Assembly: GCA_001787035.1 (NCBI GenBank)
Contig: MFUY01000002.1
Coordinates: 7,355-47,954 of the forward strand
DNA: 40,600 nucleotides
Direction of reading: 5' to 3'
Source: Candidatus Nomurabacteria bacterium RIFCSPLOWO2_01_FULL_41_12
Lineage (GTDB): Bacteria > Patescibacteriota > Minisyncoccia > Phycocordibacterales > UBA9973
This document shows, in pieces, positions 282-37,052 of this stretch (position 1 is its first letter; each line of letters begins with the position of its first letter). A model generated the notes under the pieces. The model was not told the DNA's origin. It worked only from the letters and a program-made list of their open reading frames with translations, and did no database searches. The position numbers were made by a program, and so were the translations under genes.

Positions 282-674
282 TTAATTTTTGTGAATATCT
301 TCTTCTAAATGGGCTAGTTGCTTTTCCACTCTATTCAAAGTATCTTGGAGGTTTTTAATTTGAGTTTCTTCTGTTGCAACTTCTTCTTCCACTTTTTCAG
401 CCATTTTTTCTTCGCCAATCAAGCCGGAAATAATAAGCCGGCTCCCAATAAAAGCGGAGACAAATACTCCCGTGATAAGAAGTATTATGGTTCCTATAAT
501 TATTGAGGCCACAGAACTGACATTAATATCATCGGCCAAATGCCATATTCCGCGCCAAAATAATATTATTCCAATGCCCCCTATGAGCGCGTAAAGAATA
601 GGGTAGTGGCTTAGTTTACTCCTTACTCTGTCTTCCAACTTATCAAAAAATCGCTTTATCTTTTTCAACTTCAT
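282..674 (-). CDS. hypothetical small membrane protein with acidic coiled-coil-like C-terminus
   Basis: 130-aa ORF with two hydrophobic segments (PILYALIGGIGIILFW, IIIGTIILLITGVFVSAFIG) and an EEKMAEKVEEEV tail. TAA stop. No family recognised. Confidence 0.55.
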   Translation of the reverse strand: MKLKKIKRFFDKLEDRVRSKLSHYPILYALIGGIGIILFWRGIWHLADDINVSSVASIIIGTIILLITGVFVSAFIGSRLIISGLIGEEKMAEKVEEEVATEETQIKNLQDTLNRVEKQLAHLEEDIHKN

Positions 675-753
675 CCCAGTACTAAAATTTTAAATAATAA
701 TGTTTATCCTTATTTCCCGTAATCAAAATTAGGTGAAACCGTTACGGGACAAG
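675..753 (-). repeat. Family A leader element, copy A1 (abuts the ATG of the 282..674 gene)
   Basis: The reverse complement reads ACTTGTCCCGTAACGG...AAAATTTTAGTACTGGG followed by ATG. It shares the 5' box ACTTGTCCCGT and the 3' box AAAATTTTAGTACTGGGATG with copies at 4630, 27776 and 36197. Confidence 0.7.
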
Positions 754-790
754 TATTGCTTTATCATACACTAAGAGTAGAATTGTTTCC

Positions 791-4431: not shown

Positions 4432-4614
4432 ATGTCAAAGATTACCGAATATTTCAAAGATACAAAAATGGAGCTGAAACATGTAATTTGGCCCGGGAGG
4501 AGCCAGACTCTTTACTATACTTTAATTGTCATAGTTTTGTCAGTTTTAGTCGCGTATTATCTGGGTATTTTTGATTTTATTTTTTCCAAAGGTTTAGAAA
4601 AGTTATTACCATAA
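4432..4614 (+). CDS. secE: preprotein translocase subunit SecE
   Basis: 60 aa with a single TM. ELKHVIWPGRSQTLYYTLIVIVLSVLVAYYLGIFDFIF. Located immediately upstream of nusG. Confidence 0.8.
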   Translation: MSKITEYFKDTKMELKHVIWPGRSQTLYYTLIVIVLSVLVAYYLGIFDFIFSKGLEKLLP

Positions 4615-4629
4615 GCCTCAAGCCTATAC

Positions 4630-4702
4630 ACTTGTCCCGTACTAAATTTTTGATTACGAGGCATAACGATAAACATTAATAATTAAAATTTTAGTACTGG
4701 GA
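4630..4702 (+). repeat. Family A leader element, copy A2 (ends in the nusG ATG)
   Basis: ACTTGTCCCGTACTAAATTTTTGATTACG...AAAATTTTAGTACTGGGA. TCCC 4635-4638 pairs with GGGA 4699-4702, which includes the A of the ATG. Confidence 0.7.
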
Positions 4703-5244
4703 TGAAACAAGAAACAGAGGGGGCAAGAAATTGGTACGCAATACACACTTATGCCGGATATGAAAATGTCGTCTTGCGTAATTTGCGCCAGCGCATTGAC
4801 TCCCTAGGTATGAACGATAAAATTTTCAACGTTATTGTTCCGATTGAAAAAAAGATAAAAATAAAAGGAGGCAAGAGAGTGGAGGTGGAAGAAAAAATTT
4901 ATCCGGGTTATGTTTTGGTTGATATGATTGTGACGGATGATTCTTGGTATGTGGTGAGGAATACTCCGCGGGTCACCGGTTTCGTCGGCGCGGGAGTAAA
5001 CCCGGTGCCTCTTAAAAAAGAAGAAGTGGAGTATCTTTTCAAGAAGATGGATGCCGGCACAACTAAGCACAATATTGACATGGTTATCGGCGAGAGCATT
5101 CTGATTACCGATGGTCCGTTTAAAGAACTGGAAGGGAAAATTAATTCCATTGACCAAGAGCGTGGCAAAGTTAAAGTGCTTGTTTCAATGTTCGGTCGCG
5201 AGACCCCGGTCGAACTAGATTTCTTGCAAGTCAAGAAAATTTAA
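4702..5244 (+). CDS. nusG: transcription termination/antitermination factor NusG
   Basis: 180 aa. WYAIHTYAGYENVV, YPGYVLVDM and a KOW-type C-terminus ITDGPFKELEGKI. Confidence 0.9.
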   Translation: MKQETEGARNWYAIHTYAGYENVVLRNLRQRIDSLGMNDKIFNVIVPIEKKIKIKGGKRVEVEEKIYPGYVLVDMIVTDDSWYVVRNTPRVTGFVGAGVNPVPLKKEEVEYLFKKMDAGTTKHNIDMVIGESILITDGPFKELEGKINSIDQERGKVKVLVSMFGRETPVELDFLQVKKI

Positions 5245-5258
5245 GATAATGTATCAGA

Positions 5259-5302
5259 GTCGCGCTTAAAGGACGGTTGCGCGACATGATTTCGCAAAAT
5301 CA
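5259..5302 (+). repeat. Family B leader hairpin pair, copy B1 (abuts the rplK ATG)
   Basis: GTCGCGC (5259-5265) - 13 nt loop - GCGCGAC (5279-5285), then ATGATTTCGCAAAATCA. Near-identical copy at 31249-31294. Confidence 0.7.
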
Positions 5303-5728
5303 ATGGCTAAAAAAATAACCAAAAAAATAAAACTTCAAATTCAAGCTGCAAAGGCCACTCCGGCGCCGCCCTTGGGGCCTGCGCTCGGCCAAGCCGGCAT
5401 AAATATCGGAGATTTTGTCACCAAGTTCAACGCTGCCACAGCCAAAATGGCCGGGGATAAAGTCGGTGTTTCCATTACTGTTTATGAAGACAGGAGCTAT
5501 GATTTTATTGTGAAAACACCTCCAGTAACCGGGCTTATCTTAAAAGCCGCTGGGGTGGAGAAAGGTTCTGGTAAAAATGTTGCGACAAAAGCGGGTAAAA
5601 TCACTCGCGCACAAGCTTTAGAAATCGCAAATAAAAAAAGAGCGGATTTGAATGCCAAAGATGACGAAGGCGCAATACGCATTATCGCCGGCTCTGCTCG
5701 ATCTATGGGTATTGAAGTAGTGGATTAA
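5303..5728 (+). CDS. rplK: 50S ribosomal protein L11
   Basis: 141 aa. [26 protein letters not shown]. Follows nusG as usual. No rplA follows. Confidence 0.95.
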
Positions 5729-5736
5729 CGAAGCCT

Positions 5737-6462
5737 ATGTTAAGATACTCATATATGTCAAACATTAAACAATATTTTACGCAGAAAAATGTTCTCTTTA
5801 TTGTTATTTTCGCAGTTTTGGGGTTTATCGCTCTGCAAATTCCAGTGGCCCAATTGGAAGGGTCTAAAGTGAAGTTTATGGTCTATGACGCTTTCGCTCC
5901 TGTGGCCGGCGCTTTTATCGGTAGCTTGCCTGGCGTAGTGGCGGTCTTTTTAATGCAATTTGTAAATTTCTTGGTGCACGGAGCAGTTGTGGAAGATGCC
6001 GGAACAATTATTCGTTTTTTGCCGATGCTTTTCGCGGCATTATACTTCGCTCGGAAAGGAAAATCTAATCTAGTCGTTCCAGTACTTGCGATTATCGCTT
6101 TTATTGCTCATCCTATCGGCCAAACGGTTTGGTATTTTGCACTTTTCTGGACCATTCCAATTATTGCCTATTTTTTCCGTGACAGGTTTCTTTTGGCGCG
6201 GGCGCTTGGCGCCACCTTTACCGCCCACGCGGTCGGCGGCGCTTTATGGATCTGGGTTTTCAACCTGCCGGCGCCGGTTTGGGTCTCGCTTATACCGGTT
6301 GTGGCTCTAGAGCGCGGATTTTTTGCTCTTGGAATTGTTATTTCTTTTGTTCTTGTCAACAATCTTTTAGCTTTTCTCGAAAAGAAATATATCTTAAATC
6401 TCGGTTTTACTATTAACCAGGGATATCTCTTGGGCGCATTACGCCATGAATCGAAAGTCTAA
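5737..6462 (+). CDS. multi-pass membrane protein; possible vitamin/folate-type transporter component (context only)
   Basis: 241-aa ORF (alternative ATG at 5755) with about 6 hydrophobic segments. Its stop overlaps the next gene. Any function is inferred only from the adjacent folate genes. Confidence 0.5.
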   Translation: MLRYSYMSNIKQYFTQKNVLFIVIFAVLGFIALQIPVAQLEGSKVKFMVYDAFAPVAGAFIGSLPGVVAVFLMQFVNFLVHGAVVEDAGTIIRFLPMLFAALYFARKGKSNLVVPVLAIIAFIAHPIGQTVWYFALFWTIPIIAYFFRDRFLLARALGATFTAHAVGGALWIWVFNLPAPVWVSLIPVVALERGFFALGIVISFVLVNNLLAFLEKKYILNLGFTINQGYLLGALRHESKV

Positions 6463-13470: not shown

Positions 13471-13504
13471 CCTGTCCCGTATCAAGCTTACTTTGGTTCG
13501 GGGT

Positions 13505-13533
13505 TTGCAATTTCCTCTATGTTATAGTATATT
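13505..13533 (+). promoter_or_regulatory. sigma70-like promoter upstream of rpsL
   Basis: TTGCAA (13505-13510), 17-nt spacer, TATATT (13528-13533). Confidence 0.5.
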
Positions 13534-13540
13534 TTCACCT

Positions 13541-13564
13541 GAGTCTTCGGACTCTTTTGTTTTC
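13541..13564 (+). promoter_or_regulatory. 5'-leader hairpin plus U-tract in the rpsL leader
   Basis: GAGTC-TTCG-GACTC (13541-13554) followed by TTTTGTTTTC. The same promoter/hairpin/T-run layout occurs upstream of tuf and rpsS. Confidence 0.45.
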
Positions 13565-13578
13565 AATAGTCAAATTTG

Positions 13579-14004
13579 ATGCCAACAATTAATCAATTAA
13601 TAAAGAAAAACAGGGTTAAAGTCCACGCCAAGCACAAGACGGTGGCTTTGGCCAAGGGTTTCAATGTCTTGAAAAACAGGCCGGTCTTTTTTCCGGCGCC
13701 CTTCAAGCGCGGCGTCTGCGTGAAAGTTTCAACCACGACTCCCAAAAAGCCGAACTCTGCGTTGCGTAAAATCGCCAGAGTGCGCTTGACCAACGGCATG
13801 GAAGTCACAGCCTATATTCCGGGCGAAGGACACAACTTACAAGAACACTCAGTGGTTATGCTCCGAGGAGGACGTGTGAAGGACTTGATCGGAGTACGGT
13901 ATCACATTGTGCGTGGAGTGCTTGATACACAGGGTGTTGAAAAGAGGCGTCAAGCACGTTCTCTTTATGGAAATAAGAAGCCTAAAGAAACAAAAGCAAA
14001 ATAA
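13579..14004 (+). CDS. rpsL: 30S ribosomal protein S12
   Basis: [10 protein letters not shown]..., [21 protein letters not shown] at 13579 (the track begins at an upstream TTG). Confidence 0.95.
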
Positions 14005-16635: not shown

Positions 16636-16669
16636 ATTTATGGGGGAAAATATGTGGTAGAATGGTTGA

Positions 16670-17209
16670 GTGACTACTCAATTTAAAAAATTTCTCATTG
16701 GGCTGTTTTCTTTAGTACTTGGAATCGCAACTTTCGTTGTCCTACTTTACTTTACTATACCTCGTAATGCGGGATTGGAGGGTATTGTTATTGCAATGAG
16801 TGATATAGGGTTATCTCTTGGTAGCATTTTTATTTATTACATTCTACTTATCCGAGTGTTCAGACAATTTGTCTTTGAGGATTTTATGGGTGCAGCTAAC
16901 CAAAATACACAAAGCTCTAATATACTTTTAGAAAATAAATTTAGTGTCCTGACGCTACTAGCCATTCTCTCGGTTTTTGTAAGCGGTCAATACGGTGTGA
17001 TTTTTTACGGGCTGGTTCCTGTTTTTGGCATTTTAAGCTTATTTAAGGACAGAAAAGCGGGGAAACTTTTAATTCTTACAATAGGAGCTGTATTTTTGAT
17101 ATTCACGTTTTATGAGCGTCAAACTGGATATCAAAAATGTCTTCAAGAAAAAATAGCTTATGAAAGTGACCCCAAAAATAATGCTGGCAGTTTTACTTGC
17201 GTCAATTGA
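16670..17209 (+). CDS. hypothetical multi-pass membrane protein
   Basis: 179-aa ORF with a GTG start and several hydrophobic segments. TGG-TAGAAT extended -10-like site at 16655-16663. No family recognised. It lies between fusA and the fusA 3'-end relic. Confidence 0.45.
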   Translation: MTTQFKKFLIGLFSLVLGIATFVVLLYFTIPRNAGLEGIVIAMSDIGLSLGSIFIYYILLIRVFRQFVFEDFMGAANQNTQSSNILLENKFSVLTLLAILSVFVSGQYGVIFYGLVPVFGILSLFKDRKAGKLLILTIGAVFLIFTFYERQTGYQKCLQEKIAYESDPKNNAGSFTCVN

Positions 17210-19751: not shown

Positions 19752-20563
19752 TAATTGATAAATACAACAAAAGAGCAAAAAAAATAAATTCGCTTCTTTG
19801 TGTAGGTTTGGATACTGACTTTTCTAAAATTCCCAAGCGTTTTTTGAGAAAAAAATTTCCTCAATTTGAATTTAATAAATGGATTATAGAAGAGACGCAC
19901 GAATTTGTCGTGGCTTATAAGCCAAATAGCGCATTTTATGAAGCGCGGGGTGATAAGGGAATGAAAGAATTAAAAATGACAATGGATTATTTGATTAAAA
20001 ATTATCCGGATGTTTTTACAATATTAGATGCCAAACGCGCAGACATTGGTAATACGAATAATGGCTATGTGTCGGCTATTTTTGACTGGCTTAATTTTGA
20101 TGCTGTAACTCTTCATCCATATTTAGGGAAAGAAGCATTAAAGCCGTTTCTAGACAGGAAAAATAAAGGTTGCATTATTCTTTGCCGGACTTCAAACAAA
20201 GGAGCCGAAGAGTTTCAGGATTTAGAGTTTTCGCAAGGACGGTCCTTGCGAAAACTTTGGCAGATTGTGGCGGAGAGAGTGAGTAAAAATTGGGATAAAA
20301 ATAAAAATTGCATGCTTGTCGTCGGTGCGACTTATCCAAAAGAAATGAAAAAAATCCGCGCGCTGGTCGGCGACATGACTTTTCTTGTGCCCGGTATCGG
20401 TGCGCAGGGTGGAGATTTGAAAGCTGTAATAAAAGCCGGCTTAAACAAAAAAGGCCTCGGTCTCATTATTAATTCTTCTCGGGGAATTATTTTTGCCAAA
20501 AATCCCAAAGAAGGGGCACAAAAACTTAGGGATGAAATTAGGACATATAAGAATATTTCCTAA
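19748..20563 (+). CDS. pyrF: orotidine 5'-phosphate decarboxylase (type 2)
   Basis: 271 aa. LCVGLDTD, ILDAKRADIGNT, LVPGIGAQGG. Confidence 0.85.
   Translation: MIIDKYNKRAKKINSLLCVGLDTDFSKIPKRFLRKKFPQFEFNKWIIEETHEFVVAYKPNSAFYEARGDKGMKELKMTMDYLIKNYPDVFTILDAKRADIGNTNNGYVSAIFDWLNFDAVTLHPYLGKEALKPFLDRKNKGCIILCRTSNKGAEEFQDLEFSQGRSLRKLWQIVAERVSKNWDKNKNCMLVVGATYPKEMKKIRALVGDMTFLVPGIGAQGGDLKAVIKAGLNKKGLGLIINSSRGIIFAKNPKEGAQKLRDEIRTYKNIS
20226..20256. repeat. Family D palindrome, copy D1, inside the pyrF coding sequence
   Basis: Perfect 31-nt palindrome AGTTTTCGCAAGGAC-G-GTCCTTGCGAAAACT, encoding FSQGRSLRKL. The core AAGGAC-S-GTCCTT recurs at 21908, 26121/26145, 27333 and 39978/40004. Confidence 0.7.
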
Positions 20564-22989: not shown

Positions 22990-23661
22990 ATGGAAGCAAA
23001 AATACAAGCAAAAATTTATGACCAAAAAGGTGTCTCGGCGGGGGCAGTATTTCTTCCAGCGAAAGTTTTTGCCGCTAAGTGGAGGAGCGACCTAGTGCAT
23101 CAAGTTGTGGAAGGAATGCGCAGCAATAAGCGCGCAGGCACAGCTGATACTAAGGACAGGGGAGAAGTCCGCGGTGGAGGCAGAAAGCCCTGGAAACAAA
23201 AGGGGACAGGGCGGGCACGTCACGGGTCTTCCAGGAGCCCTATCTGGGTGGGCGGAGGCGTAACCCACGGCCCGCTGGCGGAGAAAAATTATAAAAGAAA
23301 AATCTCAAAAAAAATGCGGGCGCAGGCGCTTTTCTCCGTTTTGTCTAGAAAATTAAAAGACGGGGAGATTATTTTTATAGATTCTCTTGTAATGTCTGGG
23401 ATCAGCACTAAAAACGGAGTAGAAGTGATAAAAAATTTAGCCAAAGCTATAGGAGCCAAAAATATTACAACTGCAAAGAAACCCAAAATGCTCATGGCTC
23501 TGTATGAACGTAATGTTAAAACAGAAAAGAGCTTCAGAAATATATCGGCACTTGAGATAGTTTTTCTAAAAAATCTAAATCCTCTTGATGTATTAAATTA
23601 CCAATACCTTTTAATAGAAAATCCGGTCGAGAGCGTAAAATTTTTAGAATCTCGTGGCTAG
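22990..23661 (+). CDS. rplD: 50S ribosomal protein L4
   Basis: 223 aa. RGGGRKPWKQKGTGRARHGSSRSPIWVGGGVTHGP. Confidence 0.9.
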   Translation: MEAKIQAKIYDQKGVSAGAVFLPAKVFAAKWRSDLVHQVVEGMRSNKRAGTADTKDRGEVRGGGRKPWKQKGTGRARHGSSRSPIWVGGGVTHGPLAEKNYKRKISKKMRAQALFSVLSRKLKDGEIIFIDSLVMSGISTKNGVEVIKNLAKAIGAKNITTAKKPKMLMALYERNVKTEKSFRNISALEIVFLKNLNPLDVLNYQYLLIENPVESVKFLESRG

Positions 23662-23780
23662 TGAAACTTTTTAAAATATGCTTTTTCCGGTACGGATTTT
23701 CCGAAGCTTGAAAAATCCTGAAATTCTCGGCTCGTCAGCCTCGAAACCCCTCCAAAAGCATATTTTAAAAAGTTTCACTA
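23659..23780. repeat. 122-bp element with perfect 27-bp terminal inverted repeats (rplD-rplW spacer)
   Basis: TAGTGAAACTTTTTAAAATATGCTTTT (23659-23685) is the exact reverse complement of 23754-23780. The 68-nt core contains an internal GGATTTT/AAAATCC hairpin. The left arm includes the rplD TAG stop. Confidence 0.8.
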
Positions 23781-23787
23781 AAACAAA

Positions 23788-24057
23788 ATGACAAAAATAA
23801 TTAAAAACCCAAGAGTGACCGAAAAAGCCTCATTTGCGCAAGAGCAAAATGTTTACTCTTTTGATGTTGTTTCAGGGGCGAATAAGACAGAAATAAAAAA
23901 GGCTATTTTTGCGCTCTATAAAGTGCATCCGGTAAAAGTGAATGTTTTACCTATACCAAGGAAAAATATTATGTCCAAAGGACGTTTGGGAGTCAAAGGC
24001 GGAGGCCGAAAGGCGTTGGTGTATTTAAAGGTAGGTGATAAAATAGAATTTATTTAA
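23788..24057 (+). CDS. rplW: 50S ribosomal protein L23
   Basis: 89 aa. PRVTEKASFAQEQNVYSFDV, NKTEIKKAI. Confidence 0.9.
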   Translation: MTKIIKNPRVTEKASFAQEQNVYSFDVVSGANKTEIKKAIFALYKVHPVKVNVLPIPRKNIMSKGRLGVKGGGRKALVYLKVGDKIEFI

Positions 24058-27352: not shown

Positions 27353-27547
27353 ATGAAAACAAAGAAAGACAATTTAAAAGGAATGAAAAAGGATGAGCTC
27401 AAGAAAAAGCTTGTTGTCCTGGAAGAGAATGTGCGAGTTATTAGATTTAAGGCGGAAGGTTCAAAATCAAAGAATGTAAAAGAGTCGGCAACTTTAAGAA
27501 AAGAAATTGCTCGAATATTAACAGAGATAAATAACAAAAAGAAATGA
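27353..27547 (+). CDS. rpmC: 50S ribosomal protein L29
   Basis: 64 aa. [20 protein letters not shown]. The TGA stop overlaps the rpsQ ATG. Confidence 0.9.
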
Positions 27548-27771
27548 ATAAAGGTAATATCTTAAAAGGAGTGGTTGTTTCGGACAAGATGGATAAGACC
27601 GTGATTGTAACAGTGTCGCGATTTATCAAGCATCCGCTTTACGGCAAATTTTATAAAGTAAATAAGAAATACAAAGCGCATGACCAGGAAAATAAATATA
27701 AAATCGGAGATAAGGTAGAAATAGTTGAAACCAGGCCGATTTCAAAAGACAAAAGATTTAAAGTGGTATAA
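27544..27771 (+). CDS. rpsQ: 30S ribosomal protein S17
   Basis: 75 aa. [45 protein letters not shown]. Confidence 0.95.
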
Positions 27772-27775
27772 TTAT

Positions 27776-27847
27776 ACTTGTCCCGTTGCAAATTCAACGA
27801 ATGGGACATAAAGGATAAAAATTATTAATTAAAATTTGCAACTGGGA
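27776..27847 (+). repeat. Family A leader element, copy A3 (ends in the rplN ATG; classical S10|spc boundary)
   Basis: ACTTGTCCCGTTGCAAATT...AATTTGCAACTGGGA. GTTGCAAATT 27785-27794 pairs perfectly with AATTTGCAAC 27833-27842, and TCCC pairs with GGGA 27844-27847. It carries three compensatory pair changes relative to A2 and A4. Confidence 0.75.
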
Positions 27848-28218
27848 TGATACAAAACGAAAGTTTAGTTAAAATAACAGATAACGCTGGAGGCACCGTG
27901 GGTAAAGTGTTCAAGATTTTAGGCTCTTCAAAAAAAAGATACGCGACTTTGGGCGAATTGGTTATTATTTCTGTGAAAGTAGCTTCTCCACGAAAAGGGG
28001 TAAAGAAGAAAGACGTGCATCAGGCAGTCGTCGTACGCACCAGAAGCGCCTACAGAAGGAAGGATGGATCTTATATTCGTTTTGACGATAATGCTGTAGT
28101 GCTCTTGGAAAAAGGCAAGCTTGACCCGAAAGCCGGGCGCGTCTTCGGTCCGATACCGAGAGAGCTTGCTGAAAAGGGATTTCAAAAAATAATTTCGCTG
28201 GCGCAGGAAGTAATTTAA
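27847..28218 (+). CDS. rplN: 50S ribosomal protein L14
   Basis: 123 aa. MIQNESLVKITDNAGG. Confidence 0.95.
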   Translation: MIQNESLVKITDNAGGTVGKVFKILGSSKKRYATLGELVIISVKVASPRKGVKKKDVHQAVVVRTRSAYRRKDGSYIRFDDNAVVLLEKGKLDPKAGRVFGPIPRELAEKGFQKIISLAQEVI

Positions 28219-29852: not shown

Positions 29853-29890
29853 CAGGTGTTGGACACCCGAATTCGGGTGTCCAACACCTG
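29853..29890. repeat. Family C hairpin, copy C1: perfect 38-nt palindrome (rpsN-rpsH spacer)
   Basis: CAGGTGTTGGACACCCGAA|TTCGGGTGTCCAACACCTG. Followed by the tandem CACCTGAAG x2. No U-tract. Confidence 0.8.
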
Positions 29891-30835: not shown

Positions 30836-30888
30836 ATACAGGTGTTAAATACAGGTGTTGGACACCCGGGTTCAGGTGTCCAACACCT
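30834..30888. repeat. Family C hairpin, copy C2 (rplF-rplR spacer) with tandem 13-mer
   Basis: AAATACAGGTGTT x2, then AGGTGTTGGACACC (30853-30866) pairing with GGTGTCCAACACCT (30875-30888). Same arms as C1. Confidence 0.8.
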
Positions 30889-31248: not shown

Positions 31249-31294
31249 GTCGCGCTTTAATGGACGATTGCGCGACATGATTTCGTAAAATCAT
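31249..31294 (+). repeat. Family B leader hairpin pair, copy B2 (abuts the rpsE ATG)
   Basis: GTCGCGC (31249-31255) - 14 nt loop - GCGCGAC (31270-31276), then ATGATTTCGTAAAATCAT. Confidence 0.7.
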
Positions 31295-31885
31295 ATGGAA
31301 AAGACAAAAGAAAAAAAGAATAATAATCGCAGAGGATCCTCTTTCGGACGAGCAAAGCCGGAGTTTGACCAGAAGATTTTAAATATTCGCCGCGTGACCA
31401 GGGTTGTCGCTGGCGGACGCCGGTTTTCCTTTAGCGTCGCTTTGGTGGCCGGGGATAAAAAGGGGTCTGTTGGTTTAGGCTTGGGAAAAGCGGGAGATAC
31501 GGCACTCGCGATAAATAAAGCAGTACGCAATGCCAAGAAAAATATGATAAGGTTAAAGTTGACAAAGACAATGTCTATTCCCCACGAGCTTTCTGCTAAG
31601 TTTTCAAGCTCACGAATTATTCTTTTGCCGAACAAGGGTCGCGGGCTGGTAGCTGGCTCGGTTATTCGCGATATAATAAAACTCTCCGGGATGAAGGATA
31701 TTACTGGGAAAATCGTGTCTAATAGCAAGAATAAATTAAACAATGCCAAAGCAGTCATGGAGGCTCTCTCTGTTATTTCTTCAAAATATGCAAAACCAGT
31801 AGTGGAAAACATTACCATAGTCCCGGTAGAAGTTCCTATCCCCGCAACATTTATTAAAGATGTAAAAGAGGAACCCCAGCAGTAG
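31295..31885 (+). CDS. rpsE: 30S ribosomal protein S5
   Basis: 196 aa. INRVTKVV-like RRVTRVVAGGRRFSFSVALVAGD, GLGLGKAGD. Confidence 0.95.
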   Translation: MEKTKEKKNNNRRGSSFGRAKPEFDQKILNIRRVTRVVAGGRRFSFSVALVAGDKKGSVGLGLGKAGDTALAINKAVRNAKKNMIRLKLTKTMSIPHELSAKFSSSRIILLPNKGRGLVAGSVIRDIIKLSGMKDITGKIVSNSKNKLNNAKAVMEALSVISSKYAKPVVENITIVPVEVPIPATFIKDVKEEPQQ

Positions 31886-31943
31886 AGCGAAGCTCACTAC
31901 GGGGCAAGAAAAAATAAATAAATAAAATTTCTGTAAAAAATAT

Positions 31944-35597: not shown

Positions 35598-36194
35598 ATG
35601 CCAAATGAAAATAGTCAGACTTTCGTATTTTTTGGAATAGTGGGCTCCGGCAAAGGGACACAGGTGAAATTGCTGATGGATTTTTTAAAGACTCGTGACG
35701 GACGGGAGATAGTTTATGCTTACCCAGGTAATGAGTACAGGAAACTTATAGAGTCCGGTAGCTATACTGGTTCTTTGGTAAAAGGTCCTGTTTCTCGTGG
35801 TGAACTTCTTCCCGGTTTTTTAACTGACGCTATTGTTACAAATATTCTCATTTTATCTTTGACTCCAGAGAAACATTTGATTGCCGATGGATACCCTCGC
35901 GCAGTAGCCCAATCTATGAGCTTTGAAAAAATGATGGAGTTTTATAAACGGAAAGACATAAAGATTATTTATATTGAAGTAAAAAAAGAGGAAGGAATAA
36001 AGAGAAATCTTTTACGTGGTCGGCATGATGATACAGGAGAAGGTCTTGCCAAAAGATTTGATGAATATGTAAACAATGTAGTGCCAGCGATGAATTATTT
36101 TAAAGATAAAGAAAATTATAAGATTTATCCTATCAATGGCGAGCAATCAGTAGAAAATGTGCATAAAGATATTATCGAAGCTCTGGGGTTTTAG
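35598..36194 (+). CDS. adk: adenylate kinase
   Basis: 198 aa from the ATG at 35598. FFGIVGSGKGTQ, DGYPRAVAQ, RGRHDD. Canonical position before map. Confidence 0.8.
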   Translation: MPNENSQTFVFFGIVGSGKGTQVKLLMDFLKTRDGREIVYAYPGNEYRKLIESGSYTGSLVKGPVSRGELLPGFLTDAIVTNILILSLTPEKHLIADGYPRAVAQSMSFEKMMEFYKRKDIKIIYIEVKKEEGIKRNLLRGRHDDTGEGLAKRFDEYVNNVVPAMNYFKDKENYKIYPINGEQSVENVHKDIIEALGF

Positions 36195-36196
36195 CC

Positions 36197-36270
36197 ACTT
36201 GTCCCGTACTAAATTTTTGATTAAGATAAATGACCACTCTTAGTAACAATTTAAAATTTTAGTACTGGGA
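36197..36270 (+). repeat. Family A leader element, copy A4 (ends in the map ATG)
   Basis: ACTTGTCCCGTACTAAATTTTTGATTAAG...AAAATTTTAGTACTGGGA. Both boxes are identical to copy A2. Confidence 0.7.
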
Positions 36271-37052
36271 TGATAATTATTAAAACACCAGAAGAAATAG
36301 AAATACTGCGAAAAGGGGGCAGGCATCTGGCGGCTGTGCTTCATAAAGTAAAAGAGAAAATAAAACCAGGAATTTCCACGAAAGATTTGGATGATTATGC
36401 ATTTAAGTTAATTAATGAAATGGGCGACTCTCCCGCATTTTTGAATTATCGTCCAGCCGGCGCGAAAGTTCCTTTTCCTGCAAGTCTTTGTGTGTCTGTC
36501 AATGATGAAGTAGTGCACGGCATTCCAAACAAGGAAAGAATATTAAAAGAGGGTGACATTGTCGCGCTTGATTTAGGACTTAAGCATAAAGGGCTTTTTA
36601 CCGACATGGCATTTACGGTACCAGTAGGGAAAGTGAGTTCTAGCGCTCTTAAATTAATGGAGGTGACAGAGAAGGCACTGCAAGTGGGCATCAATGCGGC
36701 GCAAGCCGGCAATACGGTAGGGGACATCGGCCATGCCGTTGAGAGTTTTGTGCGTGCCCAAAAAAACAGCCAGCAGTACGGTATTGTAGAAGTTCTCTCG
36801 GGGCACGGAGTCGGACGCGCAATACATGAAGACCCCTATATACCCAACTTTGGGAAAAAAGGGAAAGGAGAAAAGTTAGTTCCGGGCATGGTCATTGCGC
36901 TCGAGCCGATGATAAATAACGGCACAAAAAATGTGACTTTGGACGATGACGGCTACACTTTCCGCACAGCTGACAGCAAAAACAGCGCGCATTTTGAGCA
37001 TACAATTTTGATTACCGAAAATGGGCCGGAAATTTTGACCAAAACTTTTTAA
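36270..37052 (+). CDS. map: type I methionine aminopeptidase
   Basis: 260 aa. VVHGIP, DIVALDLG, FTDMAFT, GHGVGRAIHE, ALEPM, FEHTILIT. Confidence 0.95.
   Translation: MIIIKTPEEIEILRKGGRHLAAVLHKVKEKIKPGISTKDLDDYAFKLINEMGDSPAFLNYRPAGAKVPFPASLCVSVNDEVVHGIPNKERILKEGDIVALDLGLKHKGLFTDMAFTVPVGKVSSSALKLMEVTEKALQVGINAAQAGNTVGDIGHAVESFVRAQKNSQQYGIVEVLSGHGVGRAIHEDPYIPNFGKKGKGEKLVPGMVIALEPMINNGTKNVTLDDDGYTFRTADSKNSAHFEHTILITENGPEILTKTF

Follow-up and report, generated by a model that had tools for sequence, protein, structure and literature searches.

Copies of the element in the window

A hairpin element, here called family A, occurs four times in the window, a stretch of 40,600 nucleotides (nt) from contig MFUY01000002.1 of Candidatus Nomurabacteria bacterium RIFCSPLOWO2_01_FULL_41_12. 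Each copy spans ACTTGTCCCGT to ACTGGGATG and ends on the ATG of a gene. Across the family, a conserved RNA helix encloses the start codon as the dominant fold, and the element is not a transposon. Family A is a cis-acting structured messenger RNA (mRNA) segment of Nomurabacteria-type Patescibacteria (candidate phyla radiation, CPR), forming the 5′ leader of a gene where a promoter lies just upstream and an intercistronic spacer otherwise. The hairpin is probably part of an undescribed control of where and when translation starts.

The four copies claimed in the initial annotation are all present, with A1 one to three bases away from the span of 675-753 first given for it (Table 1). The terminal ATGs are gene starts for the 130-amino-acid (aa) open reading frame (ORF), nusG, rplN (L14) and map, and the Pfam matches around the copies are SecE|NusG, S17|L14 and Adk|Map (M24). 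The ATG of rplN is the true start because L14 begins MIQ and aligns from Pfam position 1 (1-122). A1 lies in a divergent promoter region in common with a Sua5/YrdC gene at 791 (Pfam for neighbours). A covariance model, which the initial annotation had suggested building, recovers exactly four copies in the window at 65-96 bits (A1, 65 bits, E = 3.7e-11; A2, 96 bits; A3, 68 bits; A4, 81 bits) with E-values of 1e-11 to 1e-17, the next matches being their own reverse strands.

Table 1. Family A copies in the window, their parts and neighbouring signals (positions counted from the first base of the window)
Feature	Position	Strand	Description
Copy A1	754..672	-	83-nt leader, from A754 to ATG 674-672 of a 130-aa membrane-like ORF
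10-nt insertion ACGGTTTCAC	733..742	-	In the 5′ arm of A1
A1 proximal alternative partner TTACGGGA	716..723	-	Complementary to the 5′ box TCCCGTAA
Candidate -10 hexamer TATGAT	763..768	-	8 nt 5′ of the first base of A1
Copy A2	4630..4704	+	75-nt leader between secE (stop 4612-4614) and nusG (ATG 4702-4704)
A2 5′ box; 3′ arm	4630-4640; 4685-4702	+	
A2 proximal alternative partner TACGAGGCA	4655..4663	+	One mismatch against the 5′ box
Copy A3	27776..27849	+	74-nt leader between rpsQ (stop 27769-27771) and rplN (ATG 27847-27849)
A3 5′ arm GTTGCAAATT; 3′ arm AAATTTGCAACTGGGA	27785-27794; 27832-27847	+	
A3 proximal alternative partner	27795..27807	+	CAAC 27795-27798 with GUUG; GGGAC 27803-27807 with GUCCC
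Extended -10 box TGgTATAAT	27764..27772	+	Overlaps the rpsQ stop codon; ends 3 nt 5′ of A3
Copy A4	36197..36272	+	76-nt intercistronic segment between adk (stop 36192-36194) and map (ATG 36270-36272)
A4 loop upstream ORF (uORF)	36230..36262	+	ATG ACC ACT CTT AGT AAC AAT TTA AAA TTT TAG (MTTLSNNLKF*)
Related module, no full copy	13471..13506	+	Box-like CCTGTCCCGTA right after the stop codon of an M50 peptidase gene; pairs with proximal TTCGGGG

Copies A2, A3 and A4 fold at -20.4, -17.4 and -19.5 kcal/mol, respectively (z = -4.96, -3.5 and -4.2 versus shuffles). The minimum free energy (MFE) fold of A1, at -13 kcal/mol, is that of the 5′ box with its proximal partner; A1 favours this fold because its 10-nt insertion, a mini-hairpin (GGU-UUC-ACC) branching from the main helix, breaks its 5′ arm. 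The first base of A4 lies 2 nt past the adk stop codon and its 3′ arm occupies 36253-36270. The stop codon of the A4 uORF falls within this 3′ arm, 7 nt 5′ of the map ATG, and the other two frames are closed. The proximal arrangement of A3 is also found in the related copies L031, L047, L081, L099 and L107, and the rplN|rplX junction of L031 reads TATAATTAT|ACTTG, matching the upstream context of A3. From the position of TGgTATAAT, transcription of A3 is predicted to start within ACTTG. The hexamer TATGAT could serve as the -10 box of A1, which agrees with a family-wide -10 peak just 5′ of the element.

A partial box had also been reported upstream of rpsL. The box itself (CCTGTCCCGT) is present at 13471-13480; it does not form a fifth copy, as it is without the distal arm, pairs proximally only and falls short of the rpsL ATG at 13580. 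This ATG (MPTINQL), and not the TTG at 13576, is the true rpsL start. The whole interval of 13471-13582 comprises the box-TTCGGGG hairpin, then a TGTTATAGT box (about 13520-13528) and a UUCG-capped hairpin.

Distribution of the family

The pattern ACTTGTCCCGT-N(35-65)-TTNNNNACTGGGA, which ends at A and does not require the ATG, was scanned over one genome per GTDB species and gave at least 114 loci, taken as 8-kb blocks; the family counts that follow are among the matches listed. Six of the 114 loci, from unrelated phyla, are chance matches, none of which continues with TG, and they were excluded from the covariance-model search. The remaining 108 belong to Candidatus Nomurabacteria, Paceibacterota and other ‘Patescibacteria’ metagenome-assembled genomes (MAGs), including some third-party annotation (TPA) records labelled Saccharibacteria, and come from 73 different assemblies, hence at least 73 species-level genomes. 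The preference for start-codon-proximal positions that the initial annotation had made a test of the family is complete among the matches listed: 110 of 110 Patescibacteria matches to the ATG-free pattern continue with TG, that is, they end on ATG. The ORF that follows is at least 70 aa long in 97 of 102 complete cases, and among the matches listed the proteins downstream fall into 77 unrelated clusters. From their N-terminal sequences, read without Pfam, we take these to include FtsA (8), PilC-like (4), and LepA, NusG and Map (3 each); presumably also among them are RibE, S5, S14, L15, L24, S9, L21, SecY, GyrB, AtpA, DnaJ and GrpE, as well as several aminoacyl-tRNA synthetases (aaRS), Obg, MreB, RodA, SMC, RecR and UvrC.

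Since the element stands at orthologous genes in different species, its copies have been inherited and not recently inserted. The occupied ribosomal-protein junction varies by species (rpsQ|rplN in the window, rplN|rplX in L031). The ‘mobile cassette’ of the initial annotation therefore holds in the sense that the element is portable between gene junctions over evolution, but there is no transposon signature and orthologous positions are kept across species. The covariance model, run over 739 kb of the loci, added about 11 copies, nearly all abutting an ATG. These vary in having ACCUG for ACUUG, UCCU with a U-G pair, a bulge-less form, a CCCC/GGGG version and two short versions, and they largely retain UCCCGU...GGGAUG.

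In IMG/VR there was only one match, a chance one inside a coding region, and thus no sign of phage carriage. The NusG gene of the window recurs in aquifer metagenomes, one Rifle sample included. Rfam 15, run over the whole window at gathering thresholds, returned tRNA-His only; permissive E-value scans of A2 and A4 gave spurious miRNA-like hairpins at 13-20 bits, against thresholds of 63-96. Literature searches on the motif strings, and on CPR, Patescibacteria or Parcubacteria together with Shine-Dalgarno (SD), leaderless or RNA motif, yielded no description of the element.

The annotation of public assemblies that contain the secE-nusG region of the window (L115-L118) omits the 60-aa secE; a spurious antisense ORF of 35-39 aa is called there instead, spanning the element. 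Separately, hairpins of about 45 nt with a CTTG(T/C)CCCGTAGT... 5′ box and without the long loop occur at 31869-31917 (-) in the window, at L032:6358-6406 and at L070:4912-4966. Their scores are weak (18-35 bits), and those in the window and in L032 have no ATG following.

Secondary structure and covariation

The alignment used for structure prediction holds 113 copies, whose outer boxes were fixed by the search pattern, so that the invariance of these boxes is partly imposed. The hairpin proposed in the initial annotation, with the 5′ box paired to the start-codon region, is the helix predicted by RNAalifold: it has 13 basal pairs, two of which, G5-U and U6-A, involve the U and A of the AUG. 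In full, the helix extends over about 22 bp, consisting of 5 bp, a bulged U, 8 bp (helix 2), a U-U mismatch and about 9 A-U-rich bp; one subclass, to which the rplN copy belongs, has only about 15 bp. Standard pairs make up 92.5% of the cells of the 22-pair helix. The covariation score is 0.088 versus 0.039 ± 0.004 for shuffles, 0 of 500 of which reach it, and sliding the 3′ partners by 1-3 columns lowers it to 0.011-0.030.

Compensatory changes cluster at three consecutive pairs: A12-U (6 UA), C13-G (10 GC, 7 UA, 3 AU and 4 UG) and U14-A (5 GC, 3 CG and 1 AU). The three compensatory pairs noted earlier in the rplN copy, where GTTGCAAA/TTTGCAAC replaces GTACTAAA/TTTAGTAC, are correct. With four insertion-bearing copies excluded, the 912 cells of helix 2 hold 902 Watson-Crick pairs, 5 G-U, 2 A-C and 3 other combinations, and there are ten different arm pairs, each perfectly complementary. 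The leaders of SerRS and HPF have GTAGTAAA/TTTACTAC arms in one species but GTACTAAA/TTTAGTAC arms in a second; because arm variants differ between orthologous positions in this way, the double changes look independent. L028 (GAC/GUC), L084 (GGC/GCC) and L100 (GC/GC) have the 10-nt insertion of A1 as well, with stems that are compensatory relative to the GGU/ACC of A1.

The U6-A pair with the AUG is part of the MFE structure in 113 of 118 copies, at a mean probability of 0.95, and the closed form has about -18 kcal/mol. Fold energies were computed at 37 °C; the host habitat is cold groundwater, where the closed helix would be even more stable. As is characteristic of a sequestering structure, the start codon is base-paired in the favoured fold, with the support of covariation. 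Forward-strand covariance-model scores are 55-101 bits versus about 30 bits for the reverse strand; from this difference and from the strictly gene-directed orientation, the structure is assigned to the mRNA strand.

Architectural classes

Copies differ in what accompanies the helix. In class (a), 44 of the 118 copies, a proximal partner with TACGGG is present: UUGUCCCGUA pairs with UACGGGRCA about 13 nt 3′ to give 9 bp at about -11 kcal/mol, which bears out the competing partner of the 5′ box noted in the initial annotation. Folding of the first 45 nt alone yields this proximal hairpin in 44 of 44 copies, and the total energy is -12.7 kcal/mol for the open state versus -18.6 kcal/mol for the closed state.

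Class (b) carries a uORF in the loop (26 copies with a TAG stop and 2 with TAA), with an ATG in the apical loop, 10 codons (consensus MTTIINNLKF) and a stop codon in the 3′ arm, 7 nt 5′ of the main AUG. Of 39 copies, 31 keep the uORF frame open, compared with 0 and 5 for the other two frames. Copies without the original ATG have another one in frame, and in one copy with a 1-nt insertion the frame continues as far as a UGA overlapping the main AUG. Where the arms covary in this class, TAG becomes TAA, and the stop codon is never lost. The uORF AUG region is unpaired to 74%, versus 21% for the main AUG region. A 5′-terminal UUG uORF (nt 3-5) through the 5′ arm was also considered and found unsupported (frame open in 32 of 42 copies, versus 37 for another frame); one variant, L061:5124, begins with AUG.

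In class (c), the ftsA copies of eight species, the upstream gene is read through the 5′ arm. The upstream gene in L083 is ybeY (HGMLHLKG motif), with a UGA stop in the loop that belongs to a TGATATAAT box. The box of this copy lies in ybeY codons, and its invariance at the nucleotide level thus persists inside a coding region. The matching upstream DNA of the other ftsA loci (L024, L033, L041, L072, L073, L097 and L105) suggests that they are alike. At L083:4652-4993, the final 11 ybeY codons (...KYLSRTKFLIK*) run through the 5′ box, 5′ arm and loop of the element.

An upstream stop codon, mostly TAA, lies 1-4 nt 5′ of the element in 47 and 0-12 nt 5′ of it in 62 of the 118 copies, and inside it in a further 12. 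The classes differ in this context: a stop codon adjoins 24 of 26 uORF copies versus 25 of 44 proximal-partner copies (p = 0.002), and an upstream -10 box is found in 4 of 26 versus 22 of 44, respectively (p = 0.005).

Transcription and translation signals of the host

SD-like motifs (GGAG, GAGG, AGGA) occur at -18..-3 of 5.7% of 775 ORF starts in the window and the loci, versus 7-8% further upstream, and the host lineage is without a Shine-Dalgarno signal. In the window, no rplA (L1) comes after rplK (L11); the ORF in that place in the region 5303-6462 (5737-6462, 241 aa) has no Pfam match. This agrees with the published description of Paceibacteria as generally without uL1 (PMC12641178), and Tsurumaki et al. 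found the anti-SD motif to be absent in about half of Parcubacteria, largely the uL1-less group (PMC9297842). No 3′ end of 16S rRNA was found in the 0.9 Mb of sequence searched, and the absence of the anti-SD is for this reason argued from the missing SD signal, the missing rplA and that study.

Among 690 element-free genes, TAnnnT peaks 6 nt before the ATG (114 versus about 22), as does TGnTAnnnT (57 versus about 1.5). Such a sharp extended -10 box 6 nt before start codons means that promoter-proximal genes are mostly leaderless. One leaderless example in the window is TGgTAGAAT-GGTTGA-GTG at 16655-16672. The same spacing applies to the element, with TAnnnT 6 nt before the first A of ACTTG in 18 copies. 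Where the upstream spacer exceeds 40 nt, TAnnnT is present within 4-9 nt in 17 of 22 copies, against a background of 13.5%, and some copies (L092, L074 and L082) have full TTGACA-17-TAAGAT-6-A promoters. Judged by promoter spacing, transcription would begin at the first base of the element where it heads a transcription unit.

Other elements in the window

Several further elements lie in the window. At 23659-23780, a perfect 27-bp inverted repeat with a 68-nt structured loop (MFE -45 kcal/mol, z = -9.5) bridges stop and start: the TAG that stops rplD (L4, 22990-23661) opens its 5′ arm, and 7 nt separate its 3′ arm from the rplW (L23) ATG at 23788. It has no Rfam match. Two near-identical G+C-rich hairpins, at 29853-29890 and 30852-30888, have 17-bp stems (CAGGTGTTGGACACCC...GGGTGTCCAACACCTG) without a U tract; they occupy the S14|S8 and L6|L18 spacers, 4-17 nt past the stop codon and 14-20 nt before the next ATG. 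A 61-nt repeat (TTAAAGGACGGTTGCGCGACATGATTTCGCAAAATCA) with a GCGCGAC hairpin, 79% identical between 5266-5326 and 31257-31317, abuts the rplK and rpsE starts and is probably a second leader family. The palindrome AAGGAC-N-GTCCTT occurs at 20234, 26144, 27333, 39977, 40005 and 21932, several times about 8-10 nt before start codons, e.g. that of rpmC at 27353. Because of its 1-nt centre an RNA hairpin is unlikely, and it may be a protein-binding DNA site.

Functional interpretation

The reading that we favour, though we would put it at somewhat short of an even chance, is that the element clamps the start codon and needs active opening, thereby gating or coupling the translation of the downstream gene. 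Given a helix of about -18 kcal/mol, no SD pairing and a leaderless habit, the downstream gene would be translated only upon such opening. The closed helix would be too stable for spontaneous initiation to occur often enough to express essential genes, and each architectural class would bring its own opener. In operon-internal copies, ribosomes ending the upstream ORF would reach the foot of the helix, where the stop codon lies 1-4 nt before it, or would read into the element. In the uORF class, initiation at the accessible loop AUG followed by reading through the 3′ arm would melt the clamp, and termination 7 nt from the main AUG would deliver a ribosome for re-initiation. In promoter-proximal copies, the 5′ box could switch to UACGGGRCA, freeing an A/U-rich leader while keeping a 5′-terminal hairpin, which may be useful against the RNase J that CPR retain. 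Overall, many housekeeping genes would be coupled or gated at the level of translation; once translation halted, the mRNA would fall into a compact, protected, silent state. Among the roles first suggested for the element, that of a translational operator or gate fits best, and that of an RNase III site is possible but weakened by the upstream ORFs that are read into the loop.

Several points weigh against the clamp. All functional steps of the model are ones that we infer. Essential, highly expressed genes downstream (L14, S5, L15, L24, S14, SecY, NusG, aaRS) would be odd for an inhibitory device, and the proximal-partner state, about 6 kcal/mol weaker than the closed one, could act only kinetically or with help. 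A stop codon 1-4 nt before the element puts the first pair 5-9 nt past the stop, so a terminating ribosome may merely abut the helix. The near-invariant basal sequence with its bulged U is not needed for occlusion and hints at a trans-acting reader. Neither a strict TACGGG partner nor an ATG uORF is present in 49 of 118 copies, although many of these look by eye like degenerate forms of class (a) or (b). Finally, the counts of G-U versus A-C pairs in helix 2 were rejected as proof of the RNA strand, 5 versus 2 being too few.

A processing site for RNase III is, in our estimation, rather unlikely. Cleavage of polycistronic or leadered transcripts by this double-strand-specific endonuclease would take off the 5′ arm, so that the mRNA would start with a short unstructured stretch next to the AUG; the trimmed mRNA would be usable by leaderless-adapted ribosomes, and the hairpin halves would stabilise the products. 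With its roughly 22 bp, conserved bulge and single internal mismatch, the canonical helix has the size and style of a substrate, rnc and rnj are kept in at least 90% of CPR genomes (PMC12641178), other long perfect intercistronic hairpins stand in the same ribosomal-protein cluster, and leaderless starts dominate the lineage. Constitutive unmasking would also reconcile a stable clamp with the high expression of essential genes. However, a double-strand cut would yield a non-stop ybeY mRNA in the ftsA copies of eight species, the conserved loop uORF and the proximal partner would be left without a role, and the rplN-type subclass has only about 15 bp, compared with the roughly 20 bp or more (about two helical turns, continuous or nearly so) expected of a substrate. 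That the hairpin is the initiation signal itself, as a cis-encoded surrogate of the SD helix or as a shunt device, we consider unlikely. More narrowly, it is distinctly unlikely that a ribosome-recruiting helix replaces SD-antiSD pairing or that ribosomes are shunted from the 5′ foot to the AUG across the base of the helix. For docking, the 5 basal pairs would open and the 8-bp helix 2, ending 4 nt 5′ of the AUG, would lie in the platform cleft near the place of the SD duplex; for shunting, a ribosome would move to the AUG from the 5′ foot, having reached it either by loading at the 5′ end or by finishing at the upstream stop codon. All copies have the same geometry: one foot follows a 5′ end or a stop codon by 1-4 nt, and the AUG occupies the other foot. 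The basal sequence and bulged U are near-invariant even in the divergent copies that the covariance model added, whereas mid-helix pairs covary freely; the box invariance is nonetheless partly an artefact of the exact-match search pattern. The lineage has no SD signal, the genes downstream are highly expressed, and h26, which contacts the SD helix, stays conserved in anti-SD-less Parcubacteria (PMC9297842). Against this, the idea is purely structural speculation, the AUG itself is paired, and the uORF class and the proximal partner are not explained. We know of no bacterial precedent for such a docking or shunting helix.

It is improbable that the basal helix and bulged U are the operator of a trans-acting RNA-binding protein or small RNA that governs a growth-gene regulon. 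An invariant sequence with a conserved bulge is typical of protein operators at start codons, dozens of unrelated housekeeping genes carry the same element, and the two alternative folds of the proximal-partner class could be biased by a factor. The factor is hypothetical, however; no separate anti-box copy was seen in the window, and the invariance can also be explained by a three-way pairing constraint (distal arm, proximal partner and AUG) together with the search pattern. Very improbable is an mRNA stabiliser, in which a stem 4 nt from the 5′ end blocks RNase J and the AUG pairing is incidental. This would suit the predicted transcription start at the first base of the element, with the helix beginning at nt 5-6, the proximal partner that preserves a 5′-terminal hairpin when the distal arm is unpaired, and the place of RNase J as the conserved 5′ exonuclease of CPR (PMC12641178), but it leaves unexplained that in 110 of 110 copies the AUG is where the 3′ arm stops, and that over half of the copies lie inside operons, where no 5′ end is near. 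An element acting at the DNA level, be it a promoter, a transcription-factor site or a Correia/REP-like miniature inverted-repeat transposable element (MITE), is largely refuted and can hardly be right. It would account for the inverted-repeat architecture, the multiple copies per genome, the species-dependent choice of ribosomal-protein junction and the -10-like hexamer in 22 of 114 loops (18 of them TATAAT, 13 with an upstream TGn). Yet the arms covary within one genome, which a protein site does not allow; orientation and the ATG end are strict, and the forward strand far outscores the reverse; orthologous genes are occupied across species (ftsA 8, pilC-like 4, nusG, map and lepA 3 each); no target duplication is visible in the flanks; and IMG/VR gave a single chance match. 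Two related candidates were rejected: a promoter-only element, in which TTGTCC would be the -35 box but is not matched by a -10 box at 17 bp, the loop holds a -10-like box in only 22 of 114 cases and the arm covariation is unexplained; and leaderless initiation driven by TTTAGT or TAGTAC as a -10 box in the 3′ arm, a hexamer that fits the consensus poorly and is altered in covarying copies.

Significance

Patescibacteria make up a large share of bacterial diversity, and gene expression there is almost uncharted. The anti-SD is absent in part of the Parcubacteria (PMC9297842), and how ribosomes find internal starts is a question on which the element bears, being a widespread and strongly conserved RNA signal that stands exactly on the start codons of core genes in such a lineage. 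If the hairpin were the initiation signal itself, it would add a third, structure-based mode of start-site selection beside the SD-led and leaderless ones. In practical terms, annotators of MAGs can use the element to locate true start codons and probable transcription starts, and a covariance model is at hand for a new RNA family.

Comparison with known systems

The element does not have the features of several known classes. It is no intrinsic terminator: in every copy the G of the AUG and coding sequence come right after the stem, which is A/U-rich save for 4 basal pairs. A MITE is contradicted by the absence of a flanking direct repeat, by 110 of 110 ATG ends in gene orientation and by conserved orthologous positions. 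A leader-peptide attenuator or riboswitch would not match a simple hairpin with no terminator and 77 unrelated downstream clusters. The ends of an integron attC site (RYYYAAC ... GTTRRRY) differ from ACTTGTCCCGT and ACTGGGATG, and the flanks of family A are the syntenic core genes rpsQ-rplN and secE-nusG.

Inverted repeats of the Correia/NEMIS and REP/BIME type resemble family A in being short, intergenic, present in many copies and co-transcribed, some with promoter hexamers and some cut by RNase III. They differ from it in that family A has a fixed orientation, an ATG end, orthologous conservation and arm covariation, and no target-site duplication. In the 35S RNA shunt of cauliflower mosaic virus, a short ORF likewise stops a few nt before the foot of a stable stem and initiation takes place at the other foot; that shunt belongs to eukaryotic scanning, however, and the likeness is geometric only. 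To our knowledge, nothing comparable to a ribosomal shunt has been demonstrated in bacteria.

The intercistronic RNase III hairpins of T7, and the lambda N and E. coli adhE leaders, resemble family A in that hairpins of about 60-70 nt, alike in sequence and interrupted by a bulge or internal loop, recur between cistrons, and cleavage there can unmask the start region. The T7 sites lack the AUG, uORF and proximal partner, and the ybeY-ftsA copies of family A conflict with cleavage. Leader-peptide reinitiation and bicistronic designs resemble the uORF class, with a short ORF running through a structured start and a stop codon beside the AUG, so that expression depends on translation of the uORF rather than on local structure; a synthetic ‘bicistronic design’ was reportedly built by Mutalik et al. 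in 2013. Compared with these devices, the uORF of family A has no SD inside, sits in the loop of a conserved hairpin with the other arm upstream of it, and is found in only about a quarter of the copies. In the MS2 coat-replicase junction, the sequentially translated ribosomal-protein operons of E. coli and the 5′-3′ fold-back of hok mRNA, a long-range helix likewise hides a downstream initiation region, upstream translation or an alternative fold exposes the start, and co-transcriptional pairing matters. These structures are gene-specific and idiosyncratic, whereas family A is one sequence-conserved, portable module at dozens of unrelated genes in at least 73 species; it also reaches from the 5′ end or the preceding stop codon to the exact AUG, in a host without an SD to hide.

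By analogy, then, the element most resembles start-site-sequestering coupling structures in function, leader-ORF coupling in the case of the uORF class, and T7 RNase III hairpins in form. What sets it apart from these systems is the single portable module reused genome-wide, its anchoring from transcript start or stop codon to AUG, and the SD-less host lineage.

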